Origin: Salinivirgaceae bacterium
GTDB lineage: Bacteria; Bacteroidota; Bacteroidia; Bacteroidales; SZUA-534
Assembly (NCBI GenBank): GCA_024405635.1
Contig: JAKSOL010000033.1
Span: forward strand, 1-17,928
Reading direction: 5' to 3'
DNA length: 17,928 nucleotides
In this document: one piece after another, positions 1 through 17,928 of the stretch
Position numbering within the stretch: position 1 is the first letter of the stretch
How the letters are laid out: the number at the start of each line of letters is the position of its first letter
Program-made: the position numbers and the translations under genes
The notes under the pieces: generated by a model
Databases searched by the model: none
What the model was told of the DNA's origin: nothing
What the model saw: the letters and a program-made list of their open reading frames with translations, nothing else

Positions 1-176
1 CTGAGCAACTTAAGGCTTGCTCATTCACCTTTAATTGTTTGGTTTTTCCTTGCCAATTTCTCCAACCTTGTTGGTCAATGGCTCTACATAGTTGGTTCTG
101 TCTGTTTTTTGCATAAATGGTTTGCGCTACGCACCCAGCAGCTTGTAAACAATAAAATATCAAGAGGTATAAAAAC

Positions 177-388
177 AAAAAACGTGGGTGTCATCACCTT
201 GCTCATCCCACGACTTGAGGCTCTTGCATTGCCGACGGAGTAGAACGAGCAATGCAGAACCCACGTGTATATAGTACGCACAATAAGGTGCATACGTACA
301 CAACGCGAGCATCTACCATTGCTTTGTTCTTGACTCCGTAAATGTTTGCAAGATTTCAAGTCGTCAAGATCAAGCGTAGTAAACGCTT
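177..388 (-). ncRNA. Putative structured leader/antisense-type RNA with mutually exclusive pairings (family not identified)
   Basis: Nested stems: 182-189/259-266 (ACGTGGGT/ACCCACGT, followed by a T-tract on the minus strand), 199-204/247-252 and 219-221/231-233. A long imperfect inverted repeat pairs 210-254 with 317-364. Further hairpins at 265-301 and 372-388. No convincing long ORF covers it. Confidence 0.5.
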
Positions 389-562
389 TTAGTATATTAT
401 AACCATCTCAAAAATTTATACTTAACATTGGCAGTTGTAGTTTGTTAAGCATAAAGTAAATGAGATGTGCGAATGTATAGTTTTTTTGAAATAGATAAAC
501 TGCCTCTAAATATTGCTAATCATCTATTTTGCTGCACCTATTTTATACACAAGTAATTATTG

Positions 563-570
563 TACTTTTG
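563..570 (+). promoter_or_regulatory. Bacteroidota sigma-A -7 element for yidC
   Basis: TACTTTTG(C) matches TAnnTTTG about 75 nt upstream of the yidC ATG. No clear -33 TTTG at canonical spacing. Confidence 0.55.
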
Positions 571-645
571 CGCTGCTTTTCAATTGGTGCATTTTATGCG
601 CAATGCTGAGCCTAAATATTTGATTATTAACATAAACCAAAAAAT

Positions 646-2502: not shown

Positions 2503-2526
2503 AAACAGAGTAAACCATAAAATCAG

Positions 2527-2564
2527 AAAAATCCTGCTCAAACAACTTGGGCAGGATTTTTTTT
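2527..2564 (+). terminator. Rho-independent terminator after yidC
   Basis: AAAAATCCTGCTCAA-acaac-TTGGGCAGGATTTTTTTT: a stem with one G-U pair followed by a T8 tract. Confidence 0.88.
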
Positions 2565-2714
2565 GCAAGTTACAATTGAAAAGCTGCCATCAAAGTGGCG
2601 TCATTGTTGACTCGTGTTAATATGATTGGTAGAGTGTTGATATTTATAAACTGTCAAAATCGAAGTTGAGGCAGTGTGTTTCATTATCTTTATGCACATA
2701 AAAACCGTACCAAT

Positions 2715-5700
2715 ATGTTTTTGATATTCGACACCGAAACCACAGGATTGCCAAAGGATTTCAAGGCTCCATTAACCGATTTTGAAAACTGGCCACGTTT
2801 GGTTCAACTTGCTTGGCAATGCCACGATGTGAGCGGAAACTTCCTTTTCAACAAAAATTTGGTTATTCGCCCTGATGGATTTGAAATTCCAGCCGAATCA
2901 ACCGCAGTTCATTGCATCACCAACGAGTTGGCAGCCCAAATGGGTGTGCCATTGACCGAGGCTTTAGCAGAATTTGCCGAAGATGTAAAAAAATCGCGTG
3001 TGGTGGTGGGCCACAACATTCAGTTTGATTTGAACGTAGTGGGTTGCGAGTATTTGCGTAGCCAAATGCCAAATGTGCTCGAAAACGCAAAATCGCTATG
3101 CACCATGAACTCTTCTACCGAGTTCTGCAACATAATGTTGCATGGGCATCTCAAGAGTCCTAAACTGTCGGAGTTGCATGCAAAACTATTTGGCGACATT
3201 TTTGCCGAGGCACATAATGCAGCAGCCGATGTTGAGGCAACAACCCGTTGTTTCTTAGAGTTGGTACGCCGCCGGATAATTCCTCTTGAACAATTGCAAA
3301 TGTCCGACGCCGAAATGGATGACTTTCAGGAGAATAACCCCGATGTAATTCGTCCTGCTGGAGTTGAATATGTGTCGTTTAAAACAGGTGAAATGATGGG
3401 CGGCAAAAAAGCCACAGAACCACAACCTGTTGCAGAAGAGCCAAATTTGGTTCCAGTTGAAGATGGAGTAACCCCTCGTCAGTTTGTGCATCTTCACGTT
3501 CACTCGCACTTTTCAATGCTCGATGGTATGTCGAAAATTGAAGATTTGGTTGACAAGTGCATGTCCAACAACATGCCAGCCATTGCCCTTACCGACCACG
3601 GCAACATGTATGGCATAAAAGTGCTAGCCGACTATTGCGACAAGGTGAACAATAAGCTACAAAACAAACTTGGCGACCTTCAGAAAGATTTGAAAAAGGC
3701 TGGCGACAATGCCGAAAAAGCGGCCGAAATTCAAGCACAGATTGACGATGTAAATGCTAAAATTGAGAAATTCGTTCCAATTAAGCCGATTTTTGGTATT
3801 GAGGCATATTGCGCGCGCCGCAGCCATTTTTATAACAAAGAATGGGCCGAAAAAAATCCCGATTTGAAAACAAAAGACGACGTGAGTGGTTGGCACCTTA
3901 TTCTTCTTGCCAAAAACAAAACAGGATACTTTAACCTTTGCAAACTAACATCGCTGTCGTTTATCGAAGGCATTTACCGCCGTCCACGCATCGATCACGA
4001 GTTGCTTGAAAAGTACCATGAGGGAATAATTTGCTGTTCGGCCTGCATTGGTGGCGAGGTGCCGCAATATATTATAAAAGGCGACCTTGAAAAGGCTGAG
4101 CAGTCGGCTTTGTGGTTCAAAAACCTTTTTGGCGACGACTATTACATTGAAATACAGCGCCACAAAACCAACAAACAAAACGCCAACTACGAAACATACG
4201 AAGAGCAACAACGTGTTAATCCGCATTTGATTGAAATAGCGCGAAAACACAACATAAAAATAGTGTGTACCAACGACGTGCACTTTGTTGAAGAAGACCA
4301 CGCCGAGGCTCATGACCGTTTGGTGTGCTTATCGACTGGTAAAAAGTTTTACGAAGATCGCATGCACTATACCAAGCAAGAGTGGCTTAAAACTCCCGAT
4401 GAGATGTATCCAATCTTTAGCGATATACCCGAGGCTCTTGAAAATACTCTTGAGGTAGCCCAAAAGGTTGAATTTTACGACATCAATTCGGGGCCAATCA
4501 TGCCAAAATTTCCTATACCTGAAGAATTTGGAACCGAGGAAATATATCGCCAAAAATTTACTGACGAGGATATTTACAACGAATTTACGCAAGACGAAAA
4601 CGGCAACGTTGTAATGACTCGCGAGGATGGCGAAAAGAAAATTAAGAAGATTGGCGGTTACCAAAAGTTGTACCGAATAAAGCTAGAGGCCGATTATTTG
4701 AACAAACTAGCTTGGGAAGGCGCCGAAATGCGCTACGGCAAAAATCTTGATCAAGCCATTGGCTCCGATGGCAACCCAGTGCCGCCCGAAATGGTTAAAA
4801 AACAAATAACATTTGAGTTGCACGTAATGAAAACCATGGGTTTCCCTGGCTACTTCCTCATTGTGCGCGACTATATTAGAGCCGCTCGCGAAGAACTCGA
4901 TTGCTGGGTTGGTCCAGGGCGTGGTTCGGCGGCAGGTTCGGTAGTCGCCTACTGCTTAAAAATTACCAACATCGACCCTTTGCGCTACGATCTTCTGTTT
5001 GAACGTTTTTTGAACCCCGACCGTATTTCGTTGCCCGATATTGATGTGGACTTTGAAGATTGCCGCCGTGGCGATGTAATTGATTGGTGTGCAAAACGTT
5101 ATGGGCCTGAAAAACTTGCGCACATCATTACTTACGGAACAATGGCAACTAAAAACTCGGTTGCCGATGTTTGCCGAGTTCACGATATTCCAATTCCGCT
5201 TACCAATGCCCTAAAAGGATTTGTTCCCGATAAATTCGACGATTTTAAAAACCCCGAAAGCGGAAAAACCTTTGCTTGGGAAAAAGAAAACGAAAACAAG
5301 AAAATTCCAAAAATCAATCTAAAAAACTGCTTTAAATATGTTCCTCAACTTAAGGCAGCTGTAAGCAAAGAGGATAATCCAGACTTGCAAGCTTTGCCAA
5401 CATATATGGAGACAAAGGAAACGGTTGCCGATGTGTTGAAATACGCAAGCCAACTTGAAAACACCAACCGACAAACTGGTGTTCACGCTTGCGGTGTGAT
5501 TATTGGTGCCGACGACCTTACAAATTATGCTCCAATTGCACTACAAGAAGATAAAGCAAGTGGCAGTTATGTAACAGTAACTCAATATGATGGACACGTA
5601 ATTGAAACGGTTGGACTTATAAAAATGGACTTTCTTGGTTTGTCAACTTTGACATTGCAAAAGGAAGCCATTCGCAACATTAAAAAGCGACATGGAATAG

Positions 5701-7508
5701 ATATTGACATTGAGGCCATTTCGCTTGAAGACGAGCAAGCTTATAAACTATTTTCGGCAGGGCGCACAGTTGGAGTGTTTCAGTTTGAGTCGCCTGGTAT
5801 GCAAAAATACTTGCGCGAACTGCAACCTCGCAAATTAACTGACCTTATAGCCATGAACGCCCTTTATCGTCCAGGACCAATTGCCTACATTCCAACCTTT
5901 ATTGAGCGTGCCCAAGGTCGCGAGCCTATCAGCTACGACTTGCCAATAATGGAAAAGTACCTAAAGGATACCTATGGCGTTACAGTTTATCAAGAGCAAG
6001 TTATGCTTTTGAGCCGTCTGCTTGCTGGGTTTACACGCGGCGAGAGCGACAAACTACGTAAGGCTATGGGTAAAAAACAAATGGCCATTCTAGCCGAACT
6101 AAAGCCAAAGTTCATCAATCAAGCAATGGAAAATCCAAACATTCAAGATGGAATTGAGCCCAAAATGAGTGAAGACAAATTGCGCGAAACTCTTGAAAAA
6201 ATTTGGAAAGACTGGGAGGCTTTTGCATCGTATGCGTTTAACAAGTCGCATGCCGCTTGCTATGCTTGGGTGGCTTATCAAACTGGTTATTTAAAAGCCA
6301 ATTACCCTGCCGAATACATGGCCGCCACTCTAACCTTGAACAAAGACGACATTAAAGAGGTTACCAAATTCATGGAAGAGTGTAAGGTGATGAAAATAAA
6401 GGTTAAAGGACCAAATGTAAACGAGTCGGAACTAAACTTTACCGTTAACAAGGCGGGCGAAATTTTGTTTGGACTAGGTGGCATTAAAGGCGTTGGCGAG
6501 GCGGCAGTAAACAAAATTGTGACTGAGCGCGAAAAGAACGGACCTTTTCAAAGCATATTCGATTTTGTTGAGCGAGTTGATTTATCGAGCTGCAACAAGA
6601 AAACCATTGAGAGTTTGGCCATGGCTGGTGCGTTTGACGAAATTACCGACATTCGTCGAGAGCAATTTATTGGCGTTGAAGGAGCCGAGTCGGCTTGCGA
6701 CGTGCTTGTGCGCTACGGAAACGCATTCCAAAGCGACAAGTCAACCAACGTAAACACTCTTTTTGGCGACGATTTAACTGCTCCAATTCCTAGACCAATT
6801 ATACCCGAAGTGCCCGAATGGAGTAACATTCAGCGACTAAATAAAGAAAAGGAATATGTTGGCATTTATTTGTCGGCCCATCCACTCGACCCGTATAAAT
6901 TCCAAATTGACTACTTATGCAAAACCAAATTGGTTGATATGACCGACTTTGAAAGCAAAGAAGGCCGATCGGTGTCGTTTGCTGGCATTGTTACCGATAG
7001 TTATACAGGCTTAACCAAAAAAGGTAACCCTTACTCAAGTTTTATAATTGAGGACTACTCCGGCTCTTTCAAAGTAATGTTGTTTGGTAAAAATCACGTT
7101 AATTTCAGCAAGTATGCGCAAAATGGACTATTCCTATACGTAACAGGAAAAATTGCGCGTCGCGAAGCATATCAACGTAAAGGCGAGCCCGCTCCCGATC
7201 CTAAATCACAACCTATTGAATTTCAGTTAACTGAAGTTAAATTACTTGACGATTTAGACACTGTTTCAATGATTAAGAACATTACCATTTCGGCAAACTA
7301 CCAAGACCTTAACGATGAAATGTTGGCTGAATTGATAGATGTTGTTACGGCAAACCAAGGCTCAACCGAGTTGTATATAACACTTACCGATAGTTCGTCG
7401 CTAATGAAACCAGTGCGAATGTTTTCAAGAAAAATGATGGTAAATGTTGATTCTGAATTGGTAAAAAAACTAAGTGCAATCGAAAATTTAAGTTTTAAAA
7501 TCAACTAG
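2715..7508 (+). CDS. dnaE: DNA polymerase III alpha subunit with N-terminal DEDDh (DnaQ/epsilon-like) 3'-5' exonuclease fusion
   Basis: Exonuclease motifs DTETTG, HNIQFD and HNAAAD. PHP motifs HLHVH, TDHG and NDVH. Polymerase motifs GPGRGSAAGS, PDIDVD, KMDFLGL and YAFNKSHA, plus a C-terminal OB fold. ATG at 2715 (MFLIFDTETTG) is preferred over the GTG at 2676. Confidence 0.97.
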   Translation: MFLIFDTETTGLPKDFKAPLTDFENWPRLVQLAWQCHDVSGNFLFNKNLVIRPDGFEIPAESTAVHCITNELAAQMGVPLTEALAEFAEDVKKSRVVVGHNIQFDLNVVGCEYLRSQMPNVLENAKSLCTMNSSTEFCNIMLHGHLKSPKLSELHAKLFGDIFAEAHNAAADVEATTRCFLELVRRRIIPLEQLQMSDAEMDDFQENNPDVIRPAGVEYVSFKTGEMMGGKKATEPQPVAEEPNLVPVEDGVTPRQFVHLHVHSHFSMLDGMSKIEDLVDKCMSNNMPAIALTDHGNMYGIKVLADYCDKVNNKLQNKLGDLQKDLKKAGDNAEKAAEIQAQIDDVNAKIEKFVPIKPIFGIEAYCARRSHFYNKEWAEKNPDLKTKDDVSGWHLILLAKNKTGYFNLCKLTSLSFIEGIYRRPRIDHELLEKYHEGIICCSACIGGEVPQYIIKGDLEKAEQSALWFKNLFGDDYYIEIQRHKTNKQNANYETYEEQQRVNPHLIEIARKHNIKIVCTNDVHFVEEDHAEAHDRLVCLSTGKKFYEDRMHYTKQEWLKTPDEMYPIFSDIPEALENTLEVAQKVEFYDINSGPIMPKFPIPEEFGTEEIYRQKFTDEDIYNEFTQDENGNVVMTREDGEKKIKKIGGYQKLYRIKLEADYLNKLAWEGAEMRYGKNLDQAIGSDGNPVPPEMVKKQITFELHVMKTMGFPGYFLIVRDYIRAAREELDCWVGPGRGSAAGSVVAYCLKITNIDPLRYDLLFERFLNPDRISLPDIDVDFEDCRRGDVIDWCAKRYGPEKLAHIITYGTMATKNSVADVCRVHDIPIPLTNALKGFVPDKFDDFKNPESGKTFAWEKENENKKIPKINLKNCFKYVPQLKAAVSKEDNPDLQALPTYMETKETVADVLKYASQLENTNRQTGVHACGVIIGADDLTNYAPIALQEDKASGSYVTVTQYDGHVIETVGLIKMDFLGLSTLTLQKEAIRNIKKRHGIDIDIEAISLEDEQAYKLFSAGRTVGVFQFESPGMQKYLRELQPRKLTDLIAMNALYRPGPIAYIPTFIERAQGREPISYDLPIMEKYLKDTYGVTVYQEQVMLLSRLLAGFTRGESDKLRKAMGKKQMAILAELKPKFINQAMENPNIQDGIEPKMSEDKLRETLEKIWKDWEAFASYAFNKSHAACYAWVAYQTGYLKANYPAEYMAATLTLNKDDIKEVTKFMEECKVMKIKVKGPNVNESELNFTVNKAGEILFGLGGIKGVGEAAVNKIVTEREKNGPFQSIFDFVERVDLSSCNKKTIESLAMAGAFDEITDIRREQFIGVEGAESACDVLVRYGNAFQSDKSTNVNTLFGDDLTAPIPRPIIPEVPEWSNIQRLNKEKEYVGIYLSAHPLDPYKFQIDYLCKTKLVDMTDFESKEGRSVSFAGIVTDSYTGLTKKGNPYSSFIIEDYSGSFKVMLFGKNHVNFSKYAQNGLFLYVTGKIARREAYQRKGEPAPDPKSQPIEFQLTEVKLLDDLDTVSMIKNITISANYQDLNDEMLAELIDVVTANQGSTELYITLTDSSSLMKPVRMFSRKMMVNVDSELVKKLSAIENLSFKIN

Positions 7509-7541
7509 TGTAATTTATTAACAATCAAAAAATTAAAGATT

Positions 7542-7862
7542 ATGGCAGAGCAAGTTACAGATGCAAATTTCGAAGAATTGGTGCTTAATTCGCCAGTTCC
7601 AGTAGTTGTTGATTTTTGGGCAACATGGTGCGGTCCATGCCGTGTTCTTTCGCCAGTTGTTGATGAATTGGCTGAAGATTTTGCAGGCAAGGTTAATGTT
7701 TATAAAATGAACATTGAAGAGAATGCCGATGCAACCACTGCAAAGTATGGCATTAGAAACATACCAACATTATTGTTTTTTAAAAATGGCGAGCAAGTTG
7801 ATAAACAAGTTGGTGCTTGCCCAAAAAATACTTTAGCTGACAAGATTAACGCGTTGCTTTAG
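7542..7862 (+). CDS. trxA: Thioredoxin
   Basis: 106 aa with the [10 protein letters not shown] active site and the IRNIPT cis-Pro loop. Confidence 0.96.
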
Positions 7863-7888
7863 TTTTGAATGTAGAAAAGGCAAACAAT

Positions 7889-7926
7889 AAAAAAGGCGGT
7901 TACTTTTTAAGTGACCGTCTTTTTTT
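7889..7926. terminator. Bidirectional intrinsic terminator between trxA and the convergent NlpC/P60 unit
   Basis: A6-GGCGGTTACTT-ttt-AAGTGACCGTC-T7, with tracts on both sides of the stem. Confidence 0.85.
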
Positions 7927-7950
7927 GTGTTTATAGGTTGAGGCGTTAAC

Positions 7951-8049
7951 TCACTCATGGTCGTCTAAATTCTTCTTTACGTACACAAACAACGCCACCA
8001 CAATAACAACTACTGCAAAAAGCGATTTTATTAGCAACGAAGGGGCCAT
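7951..8049 (-). CDS. Putative 32-aa single-TM membrane microprotein
   Basis: Manual translation gives MAPSLLIKSLFAVVVIVVALFVYVKKNLDDHE*. The ATG lies 10 nt after the NlpC/P60 stop and the ORF ends just before the terminator. Confidence 0.55.
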   Translation of the reverse strand: MAPSLLIKSLFAVVVIVVALFVYVKKNLDDHE

Positions 8050-8059
8050 AGTTCAAAAT

Positions 8060-8836
8060 TTAAAGTTGGCGCATAATAGCACGCAAAGTGTGTGAATATT
8101 GTTCGGTATCGACATTAAAAATACCGTAATGGTCAACCTTGTCAATGCGAACCACGCCCGACGAAGCGTGAATAATTTCGTTTTGCGAAATAAGAATACC
8201 AGCATGCGTTGTTCTATCGTCGCCCTCGTGACCAAAAAAAGCCAAATCGGCAGGTTGGGCATCGGCAATAAACGGAATGTGTTGTCCAACCGACTCTTGT
8301 TGCGATGCGTTGCGCGGCAAGTTAATGCCAATGGCAGCGTAGCACACTTGGGTTAAACCTGTGCAATCAATTCCAAACATTGATTTGCCTCCCCACAAAT
8401 ATGGCGAACCTAAAAATTGTTTGGCAAGTTCAACAACACTTTCGGCAGTGCGAGGTAAGTTGTTGCCCATTGGGTACGAATAAGTGTGCTTGCCAAGTTT
8501 AAAACCATCGCCATACAAAACAGAGCCCGCACCAATTGGCATTTTGTATTGGTTGTCAACCGTTACAAAGTCAATTTTTTTGCCAACAGTGTAAAAAGGT
8601 TGTTCGGCCAATTGCATAATCAGTTCGCTGTCAATAGGTGTTACAATCTTGCTGTTAATCCAACCTTCGTATCCGTCGTTTCGCAAATGAACCTTAGCCC
8701 AGTTGCCGTCGTCTTCAAGAACAATGTAAAGTTCGCCAAACAAAATTTGGGTTTCCATTTCCGATGTTTCACTTGGCTCGTGGCGGAGAGGAATAATAGC
8801 TTGGTTGCAAATGCAAGTTATTTGTGGTTGTTGCAT
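8060..8836 (-). CDS. SH3b + NlpC/P60 (C40) peptidoglycan peptidase, YkfC/dipeptidyl-peptidase VI-like
   Basis: N-terminal SH3b (PLRHEPSETSEMETQILFGE...GYEGWI), followed by LGSPYLWGG, GIDCTG (catalytic Cys), LPRNASQQ, THAG (His) and IIHAS. No signal peptide. Confidence 0.9.
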   Translation of the reverse strand: MQQPQITCICNQAIIPLRHEPSETSEMETQILFGELYIVLEDDGNWAKVHLRNDGYEGWINSKIVTPIDSELIMQLAEQPFYTVGKKIDFVTVDNQYKMPIGAGSVLYGDGFKLGKHTYSYPMGNNLPRTAESVVELAKQFLGSPYLWGGKSMFGIDCTGLTQVCYAAIGINLPRNASQQESVGQHIPFIADAQPADLAFFGHEGDDRTTHAGILISQNEIIHASSGVVRIDKVDHYGIFNVDTEQYSHTLRAIMRQL

Positions 8837-8958
8837 ATTGATAGGTTTTATGAAAATGTATTCAAAAGTGAAAAATTTTCTAACATTGACAAATATTAAG
8901 ATTCACGTTACACAGTCATTTGTAGTTGTGAAGTTAAAGCATTGAAAAACAGTTTAGT

Positions 8959-10056
8959 ATGAAGATTTCTGAAATAACCAACTATCTTGAGTCATTGGTG
9001 CCGTTATCGTTTCAAGAATCGTACGATAATGCAGGATTGCTAGTTGGCGACCGCAATGTTGAGGCAACAGGTGCGCTTATTTGTATTGATGTTACCGAAG
9101 AAGTGGTTGACGAGGCCATACAGTTAGGGTACAATCTTATTATTTCGCACCATCCGCTTGTTTTTAGTGGATTGAAAAAATTTACAGGTACCAATGCCGT
9201 TCAGCGTACTTTGTTAAAAGCCATTAAAAACGAAGTTGCCATATATTCGGCCCACACAAATCTTGATAAGGTAGCTGGCTATGGAGTGAATTTTAAAATT
9301 GCCCAAAAACTTGGTTTAAAGCAAGTTGAGGTTCTTGCGCCTGAGGGTAATCTGTATTCTAAAATAACGGTAAACGTGCCATTGTCGCACGAACAAGGTG
9401 TGGCACATGCCATGTTTAACGCAGGAGCAGGACAGTTGGGCAATTATAGTTGCAACGCTTTTTACGCTGAAGGATTAGAAACATTTAAACCTTGTTCAAA
9501 AGCAAATCCTTTTATTGGCCAAATAGACGAAACAAGTAGGGTAGAGTCAGCAAAAATTGAGGTGTTGGTACTTAATCAAGATGTTGACCGTGTGATTGAT
9601 GCAATGAAAAAATCCCATCCATACGAAGAACCAGCTTACTACGTTTTACCATTAAACAACCGATGGAACCATGTGGGGTGCGGAGCAGTTGGAAATTTGC
9701 CAGAACCACAAGATGCTGAGTTGTTTCTAAAAAAAGTGAAAGAAGTGTTTGGTTGCGGAGTTATTAGGCATACGCAATTGCCAAACAAAACAATTTCGCG
9801 AGTTGCACTTTGTGGTGGTTCAGGTAGCGAGTTTTTGCACAACGCAATTGCCTCAGGTGCCGATATTTACATCACGGCCGATGTTAAGTATCATCAATTT
9901 TTTGACGTTCCTTATCCTTTTGTACTAGCCGATATTGGTCACTACGAAAGCGAACAGTTTACAAAAGAGATTTTCAGTGAAATATTAACCGAAAAATTTA
10001 ATACTTTTGCCCACCAATTGACAAAAGTAAATACTAATCCAATAAAATACTTATAA
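8959..10056 (+). CDS. Nif3-like dinuclear metal-centre protein (YqfO/YbgI family, with PII-like insert)
   Basis: Motifs QESYDNAGL, ISHHPL, AHTNLD, HPYEEPAY, GGSG and DIGHYESE. Confidence 0.94.
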   Translation: MKISEITNYLESLVPLSFQESYDNAGLLVGDRNVEATGALICIDVTEEVVDEAIQLGYNLIISHHPLVFSGLKKFTGTNAVQRTLLKAIKNEVAIYSAHTNLDKVAGYGVNFKIAQKLGLKQVEVLAPEGNLYSKITVNVPLSHEQGVAHAMFNAGAGQLGNYSCNAFYAEGLETFKPCSKANPFIGQIDETSRVESAKIEVLVLNQDVDRVIDAMKKSHPYEEPAYYVLPLNNRWNHVGCGAVGNLPEPQDAELFLKKVKEVFGCGVIRHTQLPNKTISRVALCGGSGSEFLHNAIASGADIYITADVKYHQFFDVPYPFVLADIGHYESEQFTKEIFSEILTEKFNTFAHQLTKVNTNPIKYL

Positions 10057-10060
10057 CGCT

Positions 10061-10831
10061 ATGGCAGAAGTAGATGCAAAGGGAGCAACTTCAATTGAGC
10101 AAAAGTTGAGAAACTTGTACGATTTGCAACAAGTTGACACCAGAATCAACAAAATTGAAAAATTGAGCGGTGAACTTCCTGAAGAAATTAAAGATTTGGA
10201 AGACGAACTTGAAGGCAAAAACACTCGTATTGCTAACTTGAAGGCAGAGGTTGAGTCTAGAACTCAAGACATTGCAACCAAAAAGCAAGAGATTATTGAT
10301 GCTCAAGCCAAAATTAAAGACGACCAAGAGAAACAAAATAACGTTCGCAATAACCGCGAATACGATTCTCTTTTGAAAGAAATTGAATACCAAGAGCTTG
10401 AAGTTCAGCTTTGCGAAAAACGCATCCGCGAGTACACTGCTGAAGTTGAAAACAAAAAAGAGGCTATTGCTAACCTTGAGGTTGAAATTGCTGAGCGCGA
10501 AGGCGACTTGAACCAAAAGAAATCTGAGTTAAACGATATTGTTTCTGAAAACGAAAAAGAAGTTGCTGCTCTTAAAGAGAAAGCTGCTGAAATTGAAAAA
10601 CTAATTGATGCACAATATCTTAACGCATATCATCGTATTAAAAGCAACGCTCGCAATGGTTTAGCTGTTGTTACTGTTCAACGCGATGCTTGCGGTGGTT
10701 GCTTCAACAAAATCCCTCCTCAACGTAAAGTGGATATCCGCACACGTAAGCAAATTATTGTTTGCGAGTATTGTGGCCGCATTTTGGTTGACGATGGCTT
10801 TAACGCTGAAAACGAAAACACCGAGGCTTAA
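10061..10831 (+). CDS. Coiled-coil protein with C-terminal C4 zinc ribbon (DUF164 / CT398-like)
   Basis: Long heptad region, NNREYDSL motif and CGGC...CEYCGRIL. Its position directly after nif3 is the usual arrangement in Bacteroidota. Confidence 0.9.
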   Translation: MAEVDAKGATSIEQKLRNLYDLQQVDTRINKIEKLSGELPEEIKDLEDELEGKNTRIANLKAEVESRTQDIATKKQEIIDAQAKIKDDQEKQNNVRNNREYDSLLKEIEYQELEVQLCEKRIREYTAEVENKKEAIANLEVEIAEREGDLNQKKSELNDIVSENEKEVAALKEKAAEIEKLIDAQYLNAYHRIKSNARNGLAVVTVQRDACGGCFNKIPPQRKVDIRTRKQIIVCEYCGRILVDDGFNAENENTEA

Positions 10832-10851
10832 TACTCTGAGGTTTATACTAT

Positions 10852-10892
10852 AACAAAAAGGATTGTTGGTCTTCAGCAATCCTTTTTTTGTT
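10852..10892 (+). terminator. Rho-independent terminator after the zinc-ribbon gene
   Basis: AACAAAAAGGATTGTTG-gtctt-CAGCAATCCTTTTTTTGTT. Confidence 0.85.
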
Positions 10893-10906
10893 CAGAAAAC
10901 AACCTG

Positions 10907-12307
10907 ATGAAAAAATCGATACTATTTCTGCTGTTTGCTGTGTGCAACATGTTTGCTCAAGCTCAGTTTGTTTATTCGCCAGCTTGCCAACAAGCTCATT
11001 GTTGCGTGCTTAACCTCGATTTTGATTCAGTTGCAACAATAAACATATCAAACAATAGTAGTTATTGGATTGATGCCTACTCAGTTTATGTTGGTCAAAT
11101 AGCCAATAACCAGAACGTTGAGGCGCAAAATGCAATTCAAAAAGTAGCTGCTAGCATTGTATCGCTGCAAGCAACAAACGACAATTCGCCAGAGTTGCGG
11201 CTTGCTTTGGCCGATATGTGGTTGATGAAATCGGTGCTGTTTTTTCAAAAATCGGATTATGTGTCGGCGGCAACGGCCTACTATAAATCGTTGCGTTATG
11301 TTGACGCTACCAATCCTTTGGCATTAAAACATAGGCTGACTCGCACAGCCGTTGAGCGTTTAATGCTCAATTTGATGCCATATTCCAGTAAAGCGGCAAA
11401 TGCTCAGTTGTTTGTGCAGCATTGTCAGTCGGTGGCAACCTTTATAGCCGATAGCTCCATTGCACAACCTTTTAAAGTTGAACTTTGTTGGTTGTTTTTT
11501 ACTGTTATAAGCGATGCTAATGTTGATGCAACGAGTGTAGCTAATGTGTTTGCCATTATTCCAACTGAATGGTTTTTGCGTTGCCCTTTGTTAACAGTTT
11601 CAGCTTATAAAGTTGCAGTTAAGTACGGCCTTTCAAATTACGCGCAACAATTGATGCAATGTATTTTAAGCAACCGCATGGATAAAAAAATAGCTTCGGC
11701 AAATATGTTGATTGGCAACCATTTGATAGCAAACGCAAGCGATTCGTGTATGCGCTATTTTGATGCCTGCAAGCAATCGTCGCACATGTATGTTGCAATG
11801 AAAAAGGCGTGGGCACATTTTATTCAATCAAGAACCGATTCAGCTGATGCGTATGTTGATGCTGTGTTGGCCCTACAACCGCAAACCGATGCCGATTATC
11901 AGGCTAAGTACGAGTGCTCGTTGCGCAAACATTGGCACCCACAGCTAATGAAAGCTCGTGTTTTGTTTGATGCAGCCTATTTTGAGCAAGCTAAAATATT
12001 GCTCGATTCGGTAGATGTTTCGGCCTTAAATAACATTCAAACGGCAGAATATAACTACCGAATGGCTCGAATTTTGACAACTATTGGCAATGTTGACGAA
12101 GCAAAACAATACTACCAAAAGGTGGTTAAGTCGGGTACCGATGCCGAGTTGTATTACCCAGCGTATTCGGCTTATTACTTAGGCATTATTTACAAGCAAG
12201 AGGGAAATAAAGAAAAGTCCAACGAGTGGTTTAAATTGTGTCATAAAACCAATTCGCCAATTTATTCCGAGAGTATTCACCGCAAGGCTAAGTGGGATAT
12301 GGAGTAA
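10907..12307 (+). CDS. Exported tetratricopeptide-repeat protein
   Basis: Signal peptide MKKSILFLLFAVCNMFAQA. C-terminal TPR-like helices AEYNYRMARILTTIGNVDEAKQYYQKV and YSAYYLGIIYKQEGNKEKSNEWF. Confidence 0.75.
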   Translation: MKKSILFLLFAVCNMFAQAQFVYSPACQQAHCCVLNLDFDSVATINISNNSSYWIDAYSVYVGQIANNQNVEAQNAIQKVAASIVSLQATNDNSPELRLALADMWLMKSVLFFQKSDYVSAATAYYKSLRYVDATNPLALKHRLTRTAVERLMLNLMPYSSKAANAQLFVQHCQSVATFIADSSIAQPFKVELCWLFFTVISDANVDATSVANVFAIIPTEWFLRCPLLTVSAYKVAVKYGLSNYAQQLMQCILSNRMDKKIASANMLIGNHLIANASDSCMRYFDACKQSSHMYVAMKKAWAHFIQSRTDSADAYVDAVLALQPQTDADYQAKYECSLRKHWHPQLMKARVLFDAAYFEQAKILLDSVDVSALNNIQTAEYNYRMARILTTIGNVDEAKQYYQKVVKSGTDAELYYPAYSAYYLGIIYKQEGNKEKSNEWFKLCHKTNSPIYSESIHRKAKWDME

Positions 12308-12383
12308 AGGCGTTAGTGCATGCGGCAACTAATTCCAATAGCGGTTTTTTATCAAGTAAGGGGCACTTCTGCCTAATGTGCAT

Positions 12384-13127
12384 CTATATCTTCACATTCA
12401 GCATTTCGAACAACGGATCTTTTCTGCGGCGCGACACTTCAATTTGTGTGCCGTCGGCCATAACCACAACGGGCACTTCGCCTTTAACAAAACTGTCAAC
12501 TTTGTTGATGTTGATGATGTTTGACCGGCTGACCCTGATGAATTTGTTTTCGGGCAAAATGTCTTCGTAATACTTTAGGTTGCGGCATACCAACATATCC
12601 TCAATGTCGTCGCAAAAACGGAATTTGGAGTAGTTGCCTTCGGCCGCGCAGAACACAATGGAATCAATTGGCACAAACTTGATGCAGTCATTAAGCATGA
12701 GTCCAATCTTGTCGAACTTGTTGAAGTTGTTGTTAAACTGTTCAACCGACACATATACCTGTCTGTCTTTTAGTGAGTTGAGCACTTTTTCAAAAGCCTC
12801 CTCAAACATGTCGGGATCAATAGGTTTGAGCAGATAGTCGGCGGCGTTGAACTTTATGGCCTTTATTGCGAAATTGTCGAACGATGTAACAAAAACCACC
12901 TTAAAGTTGCGCTCTTGCACTTGTTGCAGCAAATCGAACCCAGTGCCGTCTTGCATCTGTATGTCAAGAAAAACGATGTCGGGTTTCAGAGTATCGATAA
13001 GTTTTACGCCACTTTGCACAGAGTCGGCATCGGCAATCAGTTCTATTACATTGCTGTATTGTCGCAAATTGTGGCGAACAATGTCGCGTCCGCTAAATTC
13101 GTCGTCGATAATGGCAATTTTATACAT
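12384..13127 (-). CDS. LytTR-family DNA-binding response regulator
   Basis: REC domain (IIDDE, FLDIQM phospho-Asp, YLLKP) and LytTR domain (AEGNYS, FIRVSRSNIIN, VSRRRK). Overlaps the kinase stop by 8 nt. Confidence 0.95.
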   Translation of the reverse strand: MYKIAIIDDEFSGRDIVRHNLRQYSNVIELIADADSVQSGVKLIDTLKPDIVFLDIQMQDGTGFDLLQQVQERNFKVVFVTSFDNFAIKAIKFNAADYLLKPIDPDMFEEAFEKVLNSLKDRQVYVSVEQFNNNFNKFDKIGLMLNDCIKFVPIDSIVFCAAEGNYSKFRFCDDIEDMLVCRNLKYYEDILPENKFIRVSRSNIININKVDSFVKGEVPVVVMADGTQIEVSRRRKDPLFEMLNVKI

Positions 13128-15252
13128 TTTCGATATAAGGTATTTGTATAGTTACTTTTGTGCCTTTTGCAGTTCCGTCAGAGTCATACAGATCCTCAAT
13201 TTTGCACGATATTCCTTCGGTTTCCTTGTTCAAGTCCTTAAGCCTGTCGCGGGTAAGCTGCATGCCAACCGAGCGGTGTTTCTTGTTGGCTTTGCTGAAT
13301 TCGGCGGCAGCCACTCGGCCAATGCCGTTGTCGGTAATGCTGCAGGTTAGTGTTTTCTTGTCGTGATTGTCAACCACGTCAATGGTAATGAGCCCGTTGC
13401 TGTCGGTTTTGTTTATAAGTCCGTGCAGGATAGCGTTTTCAACAAACGGCTGAATAAGCATTGGTGGTACAAAAACCAGTTCCTCCTCAATGTCGTCGTC
13501 AACGTTAATGTGGTAGTTGAATCGGTTGCCAAACCGTACCTTTTCAAGGTCGATGTAAAGCGAGAGCGACAGCAGTTCGTTTTCGAGTGGCACCCTTTGG
13601 TTCATTGAGTTGTCGAGTATCATTCGCATCAGTTTGGCGAATTTTGACAGGTAACGCTCGGCATCGCGGGGCTCGTTGTTGATGATGAAGTTTTGGATTG
13701 AGTTGAGCGCATTGAAGATGAAGTGAGGATTCATTTGCGTGCGCAACAGTGAGCGTTCAATTTCAAGAGCCTTATGTTTTAATTCGGCTTGCTCGTTCAT
13801 TTTGCGCAAACGGTAGTTGCGGAACAAGATGACGCTAATGATTATGATAGCAACAATAAATACTGACAATAGCAAGAGTTCTATCTTTTTCTGTTTTAGC
13901 TCGTTTTTGTGTTTTATGTCGAGAGTCAAACGCTCGTGGTATTGGCGAATGGAGTCGGCCTCGTGCAGTTTGTTGTATTTGTATTCCGATTCGGCCAATG
14001 CCAATTTTCTGGTAAAACTCTCGTCGCGAATTGAATCGATAAGCGTTAAAGCGATGTTGCAGAACTTGTAGGCTTTTGTTGAGTTGCCAATTATGGCATA
14101 TTCTTTAGACAACCCTTCGGCCGACTTAAACTTAAGCAACCTATAGTTGTTATAATTGGCAATGCCCCAACACTCTTCAAGATGCTGAATGGTTTTTTGT
14201 GTGTTATGCAAATCTTGATAAGCCAATCCAATTGTTAAAGTAGCCTCGGCAACTTTATAGTCCAAACCAAGTTTTTTGCGATACTCGTAAGCCTTAGTAA
14301 GGTGCGTTAAGGCTTCGCGTGGTTCGCCTTTTTTTTGCAGGGCCGAGCCGATGTTGAAAATGGCAGATTCGAGAATTGACTCACGCCAATATTTTTGATA
14401 ATCGAGCGTAACAGTTTCTTGGCTTATTGCTATTTGGTATGCTTGATTTTGGTTAAACGACTCTTTTAACTTTAGCGACAAGTTTAAGTAATACAAAGCT
14501 GAATCGTATTCTTCCAACTGAACAAATGTTAGACCAATGTTGTTGTACGATTGTGCTATCATTACCGAGTCAGAAAGTTTTAGTCTAATATCTAACGCCT
14601 CTTTTTGCAGTTGCAGTTCCTCGTCAAAGATGCGGCGGTCGTCCATAATTTTTGATAGCAAATCTTTTGTGTATGCAATGCCGATAGAGTCGAGTAACTT
14701 TTCGCTGATTGATAATTCGGCATAGGCAAATTGTTGAGCCAAAAAAGACTCGCCTTTGTGTTGGTAGAGCTGAGCCACAAAATCGTAGCAAATGCCTTCG
14801 CTATACTCGTTGCCGCATTCTTTGTACAATTCAGCTGCACGTCGGGCCGACACTATGGCGCTATCGGCAAGCCCAAGTATGTTGTAGTTAATGGCAATGT
14901 TGTAGTTGAGTATGGCCAAGTTAGCAATGTTTGACGAGTCGGAGTGGGTTACATTGTTACGTATGTCGATGGCTTGGTTGCAGTATGCAATAGATTGTTT
15001 GAAGTCGTCTTTATAATGATAAGCGTTTGCCATGTATCGCAATACTAAGGCTTCTTGCTGTTTGTTGGAGCTATGTGATTGAGCTTGGGTTAGCAGCACA
15101 AGGGCCGAGTCGGGATTTGATGGAAGAATTTGTTTACCAATGGTAATTAGTGAGTCGAATGCCGACATTTCAACTTGATTGTTGGATTTGGCATAATTGA
15201 CCGAAGCCGTAAGCAATGCTACTGCCGTGAATATTCTAAAAACAATGTTCAC
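13120..15252 (-). CDS. LytS/YehU-type sensor histidine kinase with periplasmic TPR sensor domain
   Basis: Signal peptide, multiple TPRs (e.g. AQSYNNIGLTFVQLEEYDSALYY), one TM (LLLLSVFIVAIIIISVILF), H-box QMNPHFIFNALN, and IQPFVENAILHG / DNGIG / GTKV. GTG start. Confidence 0.94.
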   Translation of the reverse strand: MNIVFRIFTAVALLTASVNYAKSNNQVEMSAFDSLITIGKQILPSNPDSALVLLTQAQSHSSNKQQEALVLRYMANAYHYKDDFKQSIAYCNQAIDIRNNVTHSDSSNIANLAILNYNIAINYNILGLADSAIVSARRAAELYKECGNEYSEGICYDFVAQLYQHKGESFLAQQFAYAELSISEKLLDSIGIAYTKDLLSKIMDDRRIFDEELQLQKEALDIRLKLSDSVMIAQSYNNIGLTFVQLEEYDSALYYLNLSLKLKESFNQNQAYQIAISQETVTLDYQKYWRESILESAIFNIGSALQKKGEPREALTHLTKAYEYRKKLGLDYKVAEATLTIGLAYQDLHNTQKTIQHLEECWGIANYNNYRLLKFKSAEGLSKEYAIIGNSTKAYKFCNIALTLIDSIRDESFTRKLALAESEYKYNKLHEADSIRQYHERLTLDIKHKNELKQKKIELLLLSVFIVAIIIISVILFRNYRLRKMNEQAELKHKALEIERSLLRTQMNPHFIFNALNSIQNFIINNEPRDAERYLSKFAKLMRMILDNSMNQRVPLENELLSLSLYIDLEKVRFGNRFNYHINVDDDIEEELVFVPPMLIQPFVENAILHGLINKTDSNGLITIDVVDNHDKKTLTCSITDNGIGRVAAAEFSKANKKHRSVGMQLTRDRLKDLNKETEGISCKIEDLYDSDGTAKGTKVTIQIPYIENV

Positions 15253-15284
15253 AATAAATGGGTTTCGATTGTTTCATTTTTTTT

Positions 15285-15292
15285 CAAAAATA
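15285..15292 (-). promoter_or_regulatory. Possible -7 element for the kinase-regulator operon
   Basis: Minus-strand TATTTTTG matches TAnnTTTG about 33 nt upstream of the GTG. The region is very AT-rich, so a chance match is possible. Confidence 0.35.
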
Positions 15293-15483
15293 AAAATAAT
15301 AAAAAATGATAATTGAAATGCTCTTACAAATTTGCATGAGCCATAAGGTGTTGAACTGCTGATGCGATGAACCATTTGCCTAAAACTTAAAAAAATCTGC
15401 GTTTTTGCCATTTTTTTGCCCCAAAACAGGCGTTTCTGTTTAACAATAATGTGTGTTTTTGGGGCTATTTTTTAGCCCTCTTT

Positions 15484-15537
15484 ACCACAAATCAGTCCAA
15501 ACCTGCATCTCGTAAGCCCAAACCGACCACTCGTTAA
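15484..15537 (+). promoter_or_regulatory. Putative LytTR-binding direct repeats (21-bp period)
   Basis: CCAAACC-N5-CTCGT occurs at 15497 and 15518. ACCAC occurs at 15484 and 15526 (2 x 21 bp). The array lies upstream of the 15633 gene and next to a LytTR regulator. Confidence 0.55.
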
Positions 15538-15632
15538 ATGAAAAAATTTGTGTGTTTTTTTTATATACTCTTGTACCCATGGGCAATAGTGAAAAGTCCC
15601 AAAAAGAATTCTTTAACTTAAAAAATAAAACT

Positions 15633-17928
15633 ATGACGAAAACACTTACAAGTTTTCGATTGCTACGTGCAATCCTAATCATGCTGGTGTTGGCTATGTT
15701 TGTTCCCGCAAGGGCTGCAATAGACATCACAGCCTCGCAACCAGCCAATGGTACGGGTACAACAGCCGACCCATACCAAATTGGTACTCCTGGCGAACTT
15801 TATTGGTTTGCCGAGCAGGTTAACAATGGACAAAACACAATCAGCGCCAAGTTGACTGCCGACATTGTGGTTAACGAGAATGTGCTGAAAGCAGAAACTT
15901 TTGACTTGAACGGCACACCTTCAAGAAGCTGGACTCCAATTGGAAAATCTGGCAACAACTTTAAAGGTACATTTGATGGCAATGGCCACACCATTAGCGG
16001 TTTGTATTTCAAAAATACAACCAATTCTAATTATCCTGCTGGTGGTAAATATATCGGCCTTATAGGTTATGCCTATGGTGCCACCATTAAGAATGTAGTG
16101 GTTAAGGACTCTTACCTCTATGGTTACCAATTCGTAGCAGGCATTTGCGGATATGCTGGTGGTTCAACCAAAATAACCAACTGCGGATATGAGGGGTATG
16201 TATATGGCAGTGGTTATTATGCTTGCGGCATTGCCTACAACTATTCTGCTACAGTTGAGAATTGCTATAGCGTGTCGAATGAGACTTTGGCAGATAATGC
16301 AACCACCAACTGCTACCACGATAATACCAAATACACAGAGTCAACCACAGCAAGCACTGGCAAGCCAAGCGAAGCCTTTGCAAGTGGCGAGGTGGCATTC
16401 TTGTTAGGTGAAGGTTGGGGCCAGAAAATTGGTACTGATGTATTGCCTATACCTGGCAGCGACAAGGTTTATAAGAACACCTACTCAGGCGAATGCCCTG
16501 GTGTGGTTTATAGCAATGATGTGGACGAACATGGTGTAGTTACCGAACGTAACCACAATTGCAATGAAGAAGGTGCATGTACGCAATGTGGTTTTTATTT
16601 TATTTCAACAGCCGACCAGTTGTATGCCTTTGCAGCAAAAGTAAATGCAGGTGGAACAACACTCTGTGCCAAGTTGACTGCCGACATTGTGGTTAACGAG
16701 AATGTGCTGAAAGCAGAAACTTTTGACTTGAACGGCACACCTTCAAGAAGCTGGACTCCAATTGGAAAATCTGGCAACAACTTTAAAGGTACATTTGATG
16801 GCAATGGCCACACCATTAGCGGTTTGTATTTCAACAATACAACCAATTCTAATTATCCTGCTGGTGGTAGTTTAATCGGCCTTATAGGTTGGGCCAATGG
16901 TGCCGCCATTAAGAATGTAGTGGTTAAGGACTCTTACCTCCGTGGTTACAACTACGTATCAGGCATTTGCGGATATGCTAATGGTTCAACCCAAATAACC
17001 AACTGCGGATATGAGGGGTATGTATATGGCTCTAGTTATGCTTACGGCATTGCCTGCAACTATTCTGCTACAGTTAAGAATTGCTATAGCGTGTCGAATA
17101 AGCCTTTGTCAAATAAGGCAACCACCAACTGCTACCACGATAATAACAAATACACAGAGTCAACCACAGCTAGCACTGGCAAGCCAAGCGCAGCCTTTGC
17201 AAGTGGCGAGGTGGCTTGGTTGTTAGGAGATGCTTGGGGTCAGAAAATTGGTACTGATGTATTGCCTATACCTGGCGGCGACAAGGTGTATGCAACAGCC
17301 CTTTGTCCTCACGCTATTGGCGGCAGCAACACGCCTAGTGATTATATTCCAATTACAGACGGACCAGAACACTACGACTCTGATGGCTATTGTGAAGTAT
17401 GTGGCGCAGGACAACCAGCTACTCTTGTCGATGGTTACTACGAGATTGACAATGTAAGTAAATTATATTGGTTTGCCAATCAGGTTAACAATGGACAAAA
17501 CACAATCAGCGCCAAGTTGACTGCCGACATTGTGGTTAACGAGAATGTGCTGAAAGCAGAAACTTTTGACTTGAACGGCACACCTTCAAGAAGCTGGACT
17601 CCAATTGGAAAATCTGGCAACAACTTTAAAGGTACATTTGATGGCAATGGCCACACCATTAGCGGTTTGTATTTCAATAATACAAGCAGTAGTAATTATC
17701 CAGAAGGTGGTCAATATATCGGTCTTATAGGTTGTGCCTATGGTGCCACCATTAAAAATGTAGTGGTTAAGGACTCGTACCTCCGTGGTTACGACGACGT
17801 AGCAGGCATTTGCGGATATGCTTATGGTTCAACCCAAATAACCAACTGCGGATATGAGGGGTATGTATATAGTTCTAGTTATGCTTACGGCATTGCCTAC
17901 AACTATTCTGCTACAGTTGAGAATTGCT
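15633..17928 (+). CDS. Large secreted GLUG-motif / beta-helix tandem-repeat surface protein (3'-truncated by window)
   Basis: The frame is open from ATG 15633 to the window end (>=765 codons). Signal peptide MTKTLTSFRLLRAILIMLVLAMFVPARA. GLUG-family hallmarks GTGTTADPYQI, WTPIG, FKGTFDGNGHTISGL, IGLIG/VAGICG, ITNC/VENCY and FASGEVA. It is absent from the ORF track because no stop codon falls in the window. Confidence 0.88.
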   Translation, partial: MTKTLTSFRLLRAILIMLVLAMFVPARAAIDITASQPANGTGTTADPYQIGTPGELYWFAEQVNNGQNTISAKLTADIVVNENVLKAETFDLNGTPSRSWTPIGKSGNNFKGTFDGNGHTISGLYFKNTTNSNYPAGGKYIGLIGYAYGATIKNVVVKDSYLYGYQFVAGICGYAGGSTKITNCGYEGYVYGSGYYACGIAYNYSATVENCYSVSNETLADNATTNCYHDNTKYTESTTASTGKPSEAFASGEVAFLLGEGWGQKIGTDVLPIPGSDKVYKNTYSGECPGVVYSNDVDEHGVVTERNHNCNEEGACTQCGFYFISTADQLYAFAAKVNAGGTTLCAKLTADIVVNENVLKAETFDLNGTPSRSWTPIGKSGNNFKGTFDGNGHTISGLYFNNTTNSNYPAGGSLIGLIGWANGAAIKNVVVKDSYLRGYNYVSGICGYANGSTQITNCGYEGYVYGSSYAYGIACNYSATVKNCYSVSNKPLSNKATTNCYHDNNKYTESTTASTGKPSAAFASGEVAWLLGDAWGQKIGTDVLPIPGGDKVYATALCPHAIGGSNTPSDYIPITDGPEHYDSDGYCEVCGAGQPATLVDGYYEIDNVSKLYWFANQVNNGQNTISAKLTADIVVNENVLKAETFDLNGTPSRSWTPIGKSGNNFKGTFDGNGHTISGLYFNNTSSSNYPEGGQYIGLIGCAYGATIKNVVVKDSYLRGYDDVAGICGYAYGSTQITNCGYEGYVYSSSYAYGIAYNYSATVENC
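15801..16468 (+). repeat. Intragenic repeat unit, copy 1
   Basis: Homologous to 16668-17288 (offset 822) and 17466-17928 (offset 1665). 15846-16012 is identical in all three copies. Confidence 0.95.
16668..17288 (+). repeat. Intragenic repeat unit, copy 2
   Basis: Begins GCCAAGTTGACTGCCGAC. Identical to copy 1 over 16668-16834, then shows point differences and a 3-nt deletion. Confidence 0.95.
17466..17928 (+). repeat. Intragenic repeat unit, copy 3 (truncated by window)
   Basis: Begins TATTGGTTTGCC as copy 1 does. The identical block spans 17511-17677, offset 843 from copy 2. Confidence 0.95.

Follow-up and report, generated by a model that had tools for sequence, protein, structure and literature searches.

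Near-identical units with position-specific hypervariable codons in a giant, predicted beta-helix repeat protein of a Salinivirgaceae bacterium

We analyzed the complete contig JAKSOL010000033.1 of a Salinivirgaceae bacterium (assembly GCA_024405635.1), a stretch of 17,928 nt that is referred to as the window throughout. It corresponds to contig C27 of the source genome (G000), which was assembled to 2.66 Mb in 36 contigs and is 99.78% complete. The window ends within a giant repeat-protein gene, the visible product of which (P0001, encoded by the open reading frame 15633–17927) consists of tandem units. An earlier note on this DNA had described units that combine a frozen scaffold with hypervariable codons at specific positions, and our analysis confirms that this observation is real. 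In our view, the gene probably encodes a multivalent surface binding protein whose modules are homogenised by recombination within the gene and by lateral exchange, with diversifying selection acting on an exposed ladder of residues; binding, surface display and the identity of the ligand are those parts of this picture that we infer.

Position-specific variation between near-identical units

Behind a probable signal peptide, P0001 contains three units of ~275 aa, each marked by the anchor KLTADIVVNENV (at aa 73, 347 and 628 of the translation), and a repeat search of the DNA returned three copies of ~300 nt with 92–94% identity at spacings of 822 and 843 nt. A unit is made up of five zones (Table 1): a 29-codon head that is saturated between the copies, 55 frozen codons, a variable block of 84 codons, a tail, and a linker that is again saturated. 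The frozen zone is a 165-nt stretch that is the same at the nucleotide level in all three copies. Over the core, the units show a protein identity of 87–90% (27/208, 14/139 and 15/139 changed codons).

Codon alignment of copies 1 and 2 (208 codons, alignment columns 30–238) yielded 27 amino-acid-changing and six synonymous-only differences plus one codon indel, close to the approximately 26, 6 and 1 that had been counted by eye in the earlier note. Five of the six synonymous-only codons lie within 16350–16467, in agreement with their reported position in the last ~130 nt. All residue triplets listed at that time for the three copies (KY/SL/QY, Y/W/C, Y/N/Y, Y/R/R, QF/NY/DD, G/N/Y, C/Y/Y and Y/C/Y) were found again, as was the tendency of many variants to alter codon positions 1 and 2 and to retain a T or C at the third position. 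Within the variable block, copies 1 and 2 differ by 24 nonsynonymous and no synonymous changes (Nei-Gojobori; Fisher p = 0.002).

The wider codon alignment comprised 11 units from three short-read assemblies, namely the three window units (“W”), six units of locus L013 (“H90”) and two units of locus L014 (“H91”), the latter being a contig of 1885 nt that consists of repeats alone. The columns that vary among the window copies coincide with those that vary among the eight foreign units (at least three residues; contingency table [14, 22; 6, 96], 138 columns, Fisher p = 9e-6). Per-position entropy was also correlated with that of 33 units from three giant open frames of a sister genus (Spearman 0.54, p = 2e-10, 120 positions); these 33 are the ones among 46 hidden Markov model (HMM) domain matches that span model positions ≤5 to ≥110.

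For the forward test of selection, the hypervariable (HV) class was set from the eight foreign units alone (57 of 220 columns) to avoid circularity. The proportion of nonsynonymous differences at these columns, pN(HV), was 0.196 for window copies 1 vs 2 and 0.237 for copies 1 vs 3, against synonymous proportions over all columns, pS(all), of 0.036 and 0.060 (Fisher p = 3e-5 and p = 0.002, respectively); for copies 2 vs 3 the values were 0.163 and 0.074 (p = 0.10). In the reverse test, the 20 columns variable in the window gave pN/pS ratios of 4.3, 2.7 and 2.2 in three close foreign pairs (p = 0.0002 to 0.02) and of 0.37 and 0.62 in two more diverged ones. Cross-validated pN was above pS at the variable sites in two of three window pairs and in three of five foreign pairs, which agrees with the strong selection at these sites that the earlier note had assumed. 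In this wider codon alignment, the excess at variable columns was seen in close pairs and was absent from the older pairs, where the ratio lies below 1.

Over all 55 unit pairs, synonymous divergence (dS) spans 0.04 to 1.15, and nonsynonymous divergence (dN) levels off at ~0.15–0.2. A two-class fit is descriptive, the pairs being non-independent; it assigns ~13 times the synonymous rate to 16% of nonsynonymous sites and 0.065 to all others. When changes were counted by parsimony on a tree of six close units, the block showed 80.5 nonsynonymous and 15.5 synonymous changes, and 66.5 of the 80.5 reconstructed nonsynonymous changes fell into 20 of 83 columns.

Fold, exposed residues and probable export

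A profile of 28 units was built from 26 of 28 qualifying tblastn segments (two rows of L008 duplicating L007 were omitted) and two window segments. Searched against the PDB, it matched 3n6z (“putative immunoglobulin A1 protease” of Bacteroides ovatus, BACOVA_03286) with E = 4e-13; IgA1 protease chains were matched with E = 1e-9 to 2e-4, in the N-terminal regions of the streptococcal enzymes. An AlphaFold2 model of unit 2 with both linkers (16479–17468) reached a pLDDT of 88.7 and a pTM of 0.82; its first 36 residues are poor, and the type-B linker is confidently modelled (pLDDT 88–92 in ten-residue blocks from 271 on). Foldseek placed 3n6z at rank 1 (probability 1.00, E = 9e-4, TM 0.42) and the IgA1 protease structures 6xja and 6xjb at ranks 2 and 5, with pectate lyases and tailspikes at lower ranks. 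Based on profile and model, the units are predicted right-handed parallel beta-helices of the GLUG / Peptidase_M26_N type, in keeping with the multivalent repeat protein on a beta-helix scaffold that had been proposed before.

Besides the profile and fold match, the units share with this domain (N-terminus of streptococcal IgA1 protease; 3n6z) an initial F-x-G-x-F-D-G-N-G-H-x-I motif and rungs of the form G-[LI]-x-G. Homologues carry PF07581 and PF05342, and the Peptidase_M26_N scores of the homologous database proteins P0002 and P0003, 39.7 and 37.7 bits, respectively, are above the cut-off of 27.7. Unlike in M26 IgA1 proteases, the domain is arranged in tandem (at least three copies here and six in P0002), and no Pfam match to the catalytic domain Peptidase_M26_C was obtained in P0001 (765 aa), P0002, P0003 or the C13 fragment described below. 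Judging from these scans, the repeat protein does not qualify as an M26 protease as far as its sequence is available. An NCBIfam scan of P0001 and the C13 fragment returned no family. Two further Pfam matches on P0001, RecJ_OB and Viral_FcR, were rejected as repeat noise; no stretch passes alone.

In the model, DSSP assigns W138 and N140 to the strand 136–140 and Y166 and N168 to the strand 164–168, with each pair flanking an invariant Ala. Equivalent registers of successive rungs are taken up by the x-x pairs that precede I-G-L-I-G and V-S-G-I-C-G, and the variable residues are mostly found at alternate positions of stacked strands or in adjoining turns. In the numbering of the model, the ladder positions of unit 2 correspond to S131, L132, W138, N140, R155, Y157–Y159, Y166, N168 and S185–Y189. 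Tyr accounts for 17.5% of residues at variable columns vs 5.7% elsewhere and Arg for 3.9% vs 0%; Ser, Gln and Glu are enriched as well, and Gly, Val, Leu and Ile are depleted. The variable residues may form one contiguous face. What carries over of the “one surface stripe” of the earlier note are the equivalent rung registers and the strand assignment of the model.

The linkers alternate between two types with conserved Cys/His patterns, C...H-N-C...C-x-x-C (16473–16600) and C-P-H...H-Y-D-x-D-G-x-C-x-x-C (17292–17423). Their C-x-x-C cysteines are kept in at least 90% of the 28 units, and the linkers may be small zinc knuckles.

The closest database protein, P0002 (2058 aa, 74% identical, annotated as partial), contains six units followed by divergent InlB-B repeats. 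P0003 combines units of this type with longer GLUG ones and has a DUF6383 domain at its end; the first 21 residues of its signal peptide are common to P0001. In the source genome, an open frame of 687 aa at the end of contig C13 (54356–56421, minus strand; L032:357–2420) encodes InlB-B-like repeats that are 55–94% identical to the C-terminus of P0002, further domains without Pfam matches, and, in its last 95 aa, a DUF6383 domain (E = 4.5e-5, 24.0 bits, cut-off 23.7). By analogy with P0002, this frame is probably the C-terminal part of the window gene. The T9SS (type IX secretion system) component that was searched for, SprA, is encoded in the same genome (SprA_N with E = 5.8e-177 in a 2502-aa open frame), and from these sequence features T9SS export of the repeat protein appears plausible.

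SprB-like proteins, large repetitive T9SS surface adhesins of Bacteroidota, offer a comparison. Like them, the present protein is giant and repetitive, begins with a probable signal peptide and has a candidate sorting domain at its C-terminus, and its genome encodes SprA. It differs in its repeat fold, and its C-terminal domain is assigned from a DUF6383 match just above the cut-off on a fragment from another contig.

Recombination among units and exchange between genomes

When the head, block 1, block 2a, tail and linker of each window unit were compared separately with the foreign units, the nearest relatives differed by segment. The head of unit 1 is nearest to H90 unit 1 (80%), that of unit 2 to H90 unit 5 (94%) and that of unit 3 to H90 unit 3 (81%). 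In block 1, the window units are 99–100% identical among themselves and 78–93% identical to foreign units, and in block 2a, unit 1 is nearer to H90 unit 6 (95%) than to its own neighbours (87–91%). The linker of unit 1, in turn, shares 95% identity with that of H90 unit 3. Absence of recombination was rejected by the PHI test, based on 177 informative sites in ten units (W unit 3, which is cut by the contig end, was excluded), as 0 of 2000 permutations reached the observed value (p = 0.0005). Both the segment-wise relatives and the PHI test support the cassette recombination among units that the earlier note had considered.

Between genomes, the scaffold is near-identical even at synonymous sites, and the same dozen codons differ. 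The units share 85–95% DNA identity with those of genomes in which DnaE reaches only 61% identity. In the comparison of the source genome with G041 and G042, DnaE shows 61% protein identity with pS of 0.87–0.88, YidC is 42–43% and NIF3 40–44% identical, and the unit cores have dS values of 0.08–0.18. This low dS despite the housekeeping divergence therefore suggests a recent lateral exchange of the gene or its units between lineages. A comparison of the 8 kb upstream of the L013 homologue with window positions 1–15632 by blastn and tblastx gave no match, and the flanks are accordingly non-syntenic. In genus g5, which belongs to the same family as the source genome (DnaE 62%), the units are only 48–51% identical.

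In the window DnaE itself (DNA polymerase III alpha subunit, 2676–7508, plus strand, 1610 aa), an exonuclease domain of the RNase_T type is fused N-terminally to the PHP/polymerase core. This fused length recurs in the sister genus g5, where the open frames measure 1622 and 1605 aa; the DnaE proteins of G041 and G042 are without it, having 1337 and 1344 aa and a match that starts at residue 268.

At the protein level, 4412 long proteins at E ≤ 0.001 were found among 7980 scored candidates, comprising GLUG / M26_N repeat proteins from gut and rumen metagenomes. The unit family was matched in 24 of 41 related genomes, including the source genome, with open frames of up to 6820 aa. A DNA search with the core of unit 2 in 400 other genomes of the same order and the source genome (two candidates scored per genome) gave matches at E ≤ 1e-20 in one of the 401, the source genome itself; the close units of G041 and G042 are therefore not widespread in that sample.

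The source genome encodes a second giant GLUG paralogue (C9, 23183–28351, minus strand), a 1931-aa open frame that is 30–38% identical, and three smaller GLUG paralogues (C1:191072, C14:45901 and C34:82727). The giant open frames of the sister genus measure 6820 aa (L027, G018:C3), 3851 aa (L028, G018:C15) and 2684 aa (L029, G009:C13). Each of them shows ~8–15 HMM matches that start at the first model positions and recur every ~380–400 aa, and this spacing suggests that the beta-helix units are longer there.

The features of the repeat gene are collected in Table 1. Upstream of it and divergently oriented lies a two-component pair (12384–15252, minus strand) consisting of a His_kinase with TPR (710 aa) and a LytTR response regulator, and a 380-nt AT-rich spacer (15253–15632) separates the pair from the repeat gene. 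The LytTR pair could regulate this gene.

Table 1. Features of the giant repeat-protein gene in the window (17,928 nt)
Feature	Position	Strand	Remarks
Giant repeat-protein gene, 5' part	15633..17927	+	765 aa visible; frame open at contig end
Probable signal peptide MTKTLTSFRLLRAILIMLVLAMFVPARAA	15633..15719	+	Read by eye from the translation
Unit 1 (aa 43–316), predicted beta-helix module and type-A Cys-rich linker	15759..16580	+	
Unit 2 (aa 317–597), predicted beta-helix module and type-B Cys/His linker	16581..17423	+	
Unit 3 (aa 598–765), cut by contig end	17424..17927	+	
Frozen block, unit 1	15846..16010	+	55 codons DNA-identical to the blocks of units 2 and 3
Frozen block, unit 2	16668..16832	+	Codon alignment
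Frozen block, unit 3	17511..17675	+	Codon alignment
Variable block, unit 1	16011..16265	+	Three rungs: GGxxIGLIGxAx, LxGYxxVxGICGxAx, YxxxYAxGIAxN
Variable block, unit 2	16833..17084	+	Codon alignment, model DSSP
Variable block, unit 3	17676..17927	+	Codon alignment
Tail, unit 1 (last rungs and helical cap)	16266..16472	+	Copies 1 vs 2 dN/dS 0.66
Tail, unit 2	17085..17291	+	Codon alignment
Type-A linker and unit 2 head, KNTYSGECPG...NHNCNEEGACTQCG...LYAFAAKVN	16473..16667	+	Divergence from type B saturated
Type-B linker and unit 3 head, ATALCPH...EHYDSDGYCEVCG...LYWFANQVN	17292..17510	+	Sequence alignment

Explanations of the variation and comparison with known systems

The explanation that we favour would work as follows. 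The giant, probably T9SS-exported product would be a cell-surface adhesin-like protein of tandem ~275-aa beta-helix modules joined by Cys/His-rich knuckles. On the three stacked rungs of each module, ~20 variable residues (Tyr, Arg, Ser, Gln, Glu) would be placed mostly at outward-alternating strand positions or turns, and each module would therefore present a different binding face on an identical scaffold. Homologous recombination among units, by gene conversion or unequal crossing-over, would keep the scaffold near-identical even at synonymous sites, and so would the lateral transfer of units, or of the gene in its entirety, among gut Bacteroidales that are only distantly related. Diversifying selection would create and preserve the differences at the ladder positions, and no dedicated mutator would be involved. 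Of the mechanisms offered in the earlier note, strong selection and cassette recombination are thus retained, and the one resembling a diversity-generating retroelement (DGR) is given up.

Several points weigh against this explanation. Block-wide dN/dS in comparisons with copy 3 is 1.2 and 0.84, neither of them significant, and only copies 1 vs 2 lie significantly above 1. One of the three cross-validated window pairs is likewise non-significant, the reverse-test ratio drops below 1 in the two more diverged foreign pairs, and the tree-based omega for the six close units is 1.54 (binomial p = 0.09). The sample amounts to 11 units from three short-read assemblies, the pairs are non-independent, and Nei-Gojobori counting ignores recombination. 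Because gene conversion lowers dS, dN/dS overstates the rate of new change; some of the differences, moreover, are old and occur in more than one genome, an example being the KY, Y, Y state that unit 1 has in common with H90 unit 6 in its first rung. The repeats interrupt or make up each of the three assemblies, and where sequences meet across the 165-nt identical block the join may have been chosen by the assembler, which would make the units look more mosaic than they are. With respect to fold and export, the Pfam Glug score on P0001 itself is sub-threshold (E = 0.0059, 17.4 bits, under the 20.5 cut-off), the Por_Secre_tail match on the C13 frame is below its cut-off (E = 0.0066, 17.1 vs 27 bits), and the C13 fragment is tied to the window gene by analogy with P0002.

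Among the rivals, recent tandem duplication followed by relaxed constraint at exposed sites is best placed, albeit unlikely; the scaffold would be purified and the surface would drift, with no positive selection. Whole-block dN/dS of about 1 in two of three window pairs and the tree count of 1.54 (p = 0.09) would suit this scenario, as would the ratio below 1 in older pairs and the variation of the same positions across the wider family, as for generically exposed sites. Neutral sites, however, cannot outpace the synonymous rate, and at independently defined variable columns pN/pS amounts to 2.2–5.4 in window pairs and 2.2–4.3 in the three close foreign pairs. Drift also sits poorly with the 24 nonsynonymous and 0 synonymous changes between copies 1 and 2 in 84 codons, with the codons differing at two positions (7–8 per pair among copies 1–3; 4–5 for copies 2 vs 3) and with the non-random enrichment of Tyr and Arg. 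Even if conversion has lowered dS, drift by itself would not exempt precisely these codons.

Next in order, and similarly improbable, comes programmed high-frequency segmental gene conversion of the vlsE or pilE kind, in which units or unassembled silent copies would donate patches and the faces would change within a population. Mosaic units with segment-wise different relatives, the PHI result and the reassortment of variable-codon states between units of different genomes are consistent with such a system; moreover, the middle of the gene is unassembled, and metagenome contigs of four runs hold many 90–95% variants of unit segments. These contigs (Logan, four of 20 listed runs) are, however, pieces of 100–400 nt that are 90–100% alike, many of them fitting two places; they are not assignable to a unit, strain or organism and are silent on within-population switching. 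A blastn search of the source assembly found no silent cassette locus, and no recombinase or invertase adjoins the gene, which has housekeeping genes and the LytTR pair as its neighbours. The mosaics are accounted for by ordinary homologous recombination acting on an evolutionary timescale.

We consider it very unlikely that the copies are assembly artefacts, that is, chimeras or collapsed strain variants from short-read assembly, with differences that are really between-strain polymorphism. The contig does end inside copy 3, L014 is a short repeat-only contig, P0002 is annotated as partial, the 165-nt identical block is longer than common k-mer sizes, and many variant pieces occur in several runs. 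Nevertheless, the three copies stand on one contig and are joined through two clearly different, saturated linker types, the same architecture and variable columns recur in an independent six-unit assembly, and the excess of pN over pS does not depend on which head joins which block.

A DGR acting in trans, or another adenine-directed hypermutation that rewrites the variable codons from a template repeat, can hardly be credited for this locus. DGR targets of the Bordetella phage BPP-1 Mtd type do share position-specific hypervariability on a fixed scaffold and many changes at codon positions 1 and 2 with the units, in many variants of which a third-position T or C is kept, and at 28 of the 38 variable nucleotide sites one copy or more shows an A. 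The related genomes G041 and G042 also encode reverse transcriptases (L024, G041:C10; L025, G042:C33; L026, G041:C27; open frames of 381–436 aa) with an IGNLTSQ motif, which we take to be DGR-type. Against this, an RVT_1 search of the 99.78% complete source genome gave no match (two candidates were scored and rejected), and a blastn search (word size 11) with unit 2 across all 36 contigs returned only the three coding copies and one 55-nt match of 80% in the C9 paralogue, so that neither the non-coding A-rich template nor the nearby reverse transcriptase envisaged in the earlier note was found there. The variable nucleotides are spread over codon positions 1/2/3 as 14/13/11, ten of the 38 sites are without A in any copy, and 57 adenines in the block are invariant across the three copies, 33 of them in all 11 units. 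The variable region is modelled as an internal right-handed beta-helix and not as a C-terminal CLec or Ig-like fold. The three reverse transcriptase loci of G041 and G042 showed no match longer than 27 nt and no template-like match to the units, and the same variable-codon combinations persist across genomes, unlike under continual remutagenesis. Taken together, the missing reverse transcriptase and template, the invariant adenines, the third-position variation and the predicted beta-helix fold in our judgement refute the DGR reading for this locus.

The reverse transcriptase of L024 has its own open frame just upstream, with a Tyr/Ser/Asp-rich C-terminus that was read by eye as lectin-like (CLec/FGE-like), as is typical of DGR targets. 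From its sequence, L024 looks like a classical DGR cassette that is unrelated to the GLUG units.

PMC13449251 describes fungal NLR proteins with high-internal-conservation (HIC) repeats (WD40 repeats of HET-E/D/R, ANK and TPR), which are near-identical and have few hypervariable, positively selected positions; citing Paoletti 2007 and Dyrka 2014, it proposes concerted evolution by unequal crossing-over together with repeat shuffling or exchange between genes. Compared with HIC repeats as portrayed there, the units of the window fall into the same range of ~80–100% identity (92–94% for DNA and 87–90% for protein) and likewise have few hypervariable positions with pN > pS in the cross-validated counts. 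Mosaicism and the PHI test support shuffling in our case, with the gene incompletely assembled and the metagenome contigs short. Several features set the two apart: the unit is a whole ~275-aa predicted beta-helix domain with a linker and not a solenoid repeat of ~40 aa; the protein is bacterial, bears a signal peptide and is putatively extracellular, with no NACHT/NB-ARC ATPase domain in the Pfam scans of P0001, P0002 and P0003; and the units are common to distantly related species.

A more speculative suggestion, which we hold to be rather unlikely, is that distantly related gut Bacteroidales laterally share a pool of hypervariable Tyr-rich beta-helix cassettes, which would amount to a natural library of binders on a GLUG scaffold and is perhaps actively reassorted in one giant gene by frequent segmental conversion. 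If this were true, a population would show changing combinations of binding faces without a retroelement, and the system would be what vlsE-type variation, or the HIC repeats of fungal NLRs, would look like in a bacterial, extracellular setting.

Gut and rumen metagenomes abound in GLUG / M26_N beta-helix repeat proteins, which are almost unstudied; our literature search, which did not reach supplementary tables, turned up no publication that deals with selection on GLUG repeats or with their hypervariability. The similarity of the units at the DNA level despite saturated housekeeping divergence marks the gene as laterally exchanged in gut communities, and antibody-like variation can arise from recombination and selection alone. 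If the modules carry selected Tyr-rich faces, multivalent and multi-specific binding would be a hypothesis for the role of these giant proteins, and the variable columns would provide defined positions to mutate or graft and possibly a natural scaffold for binder engineering.

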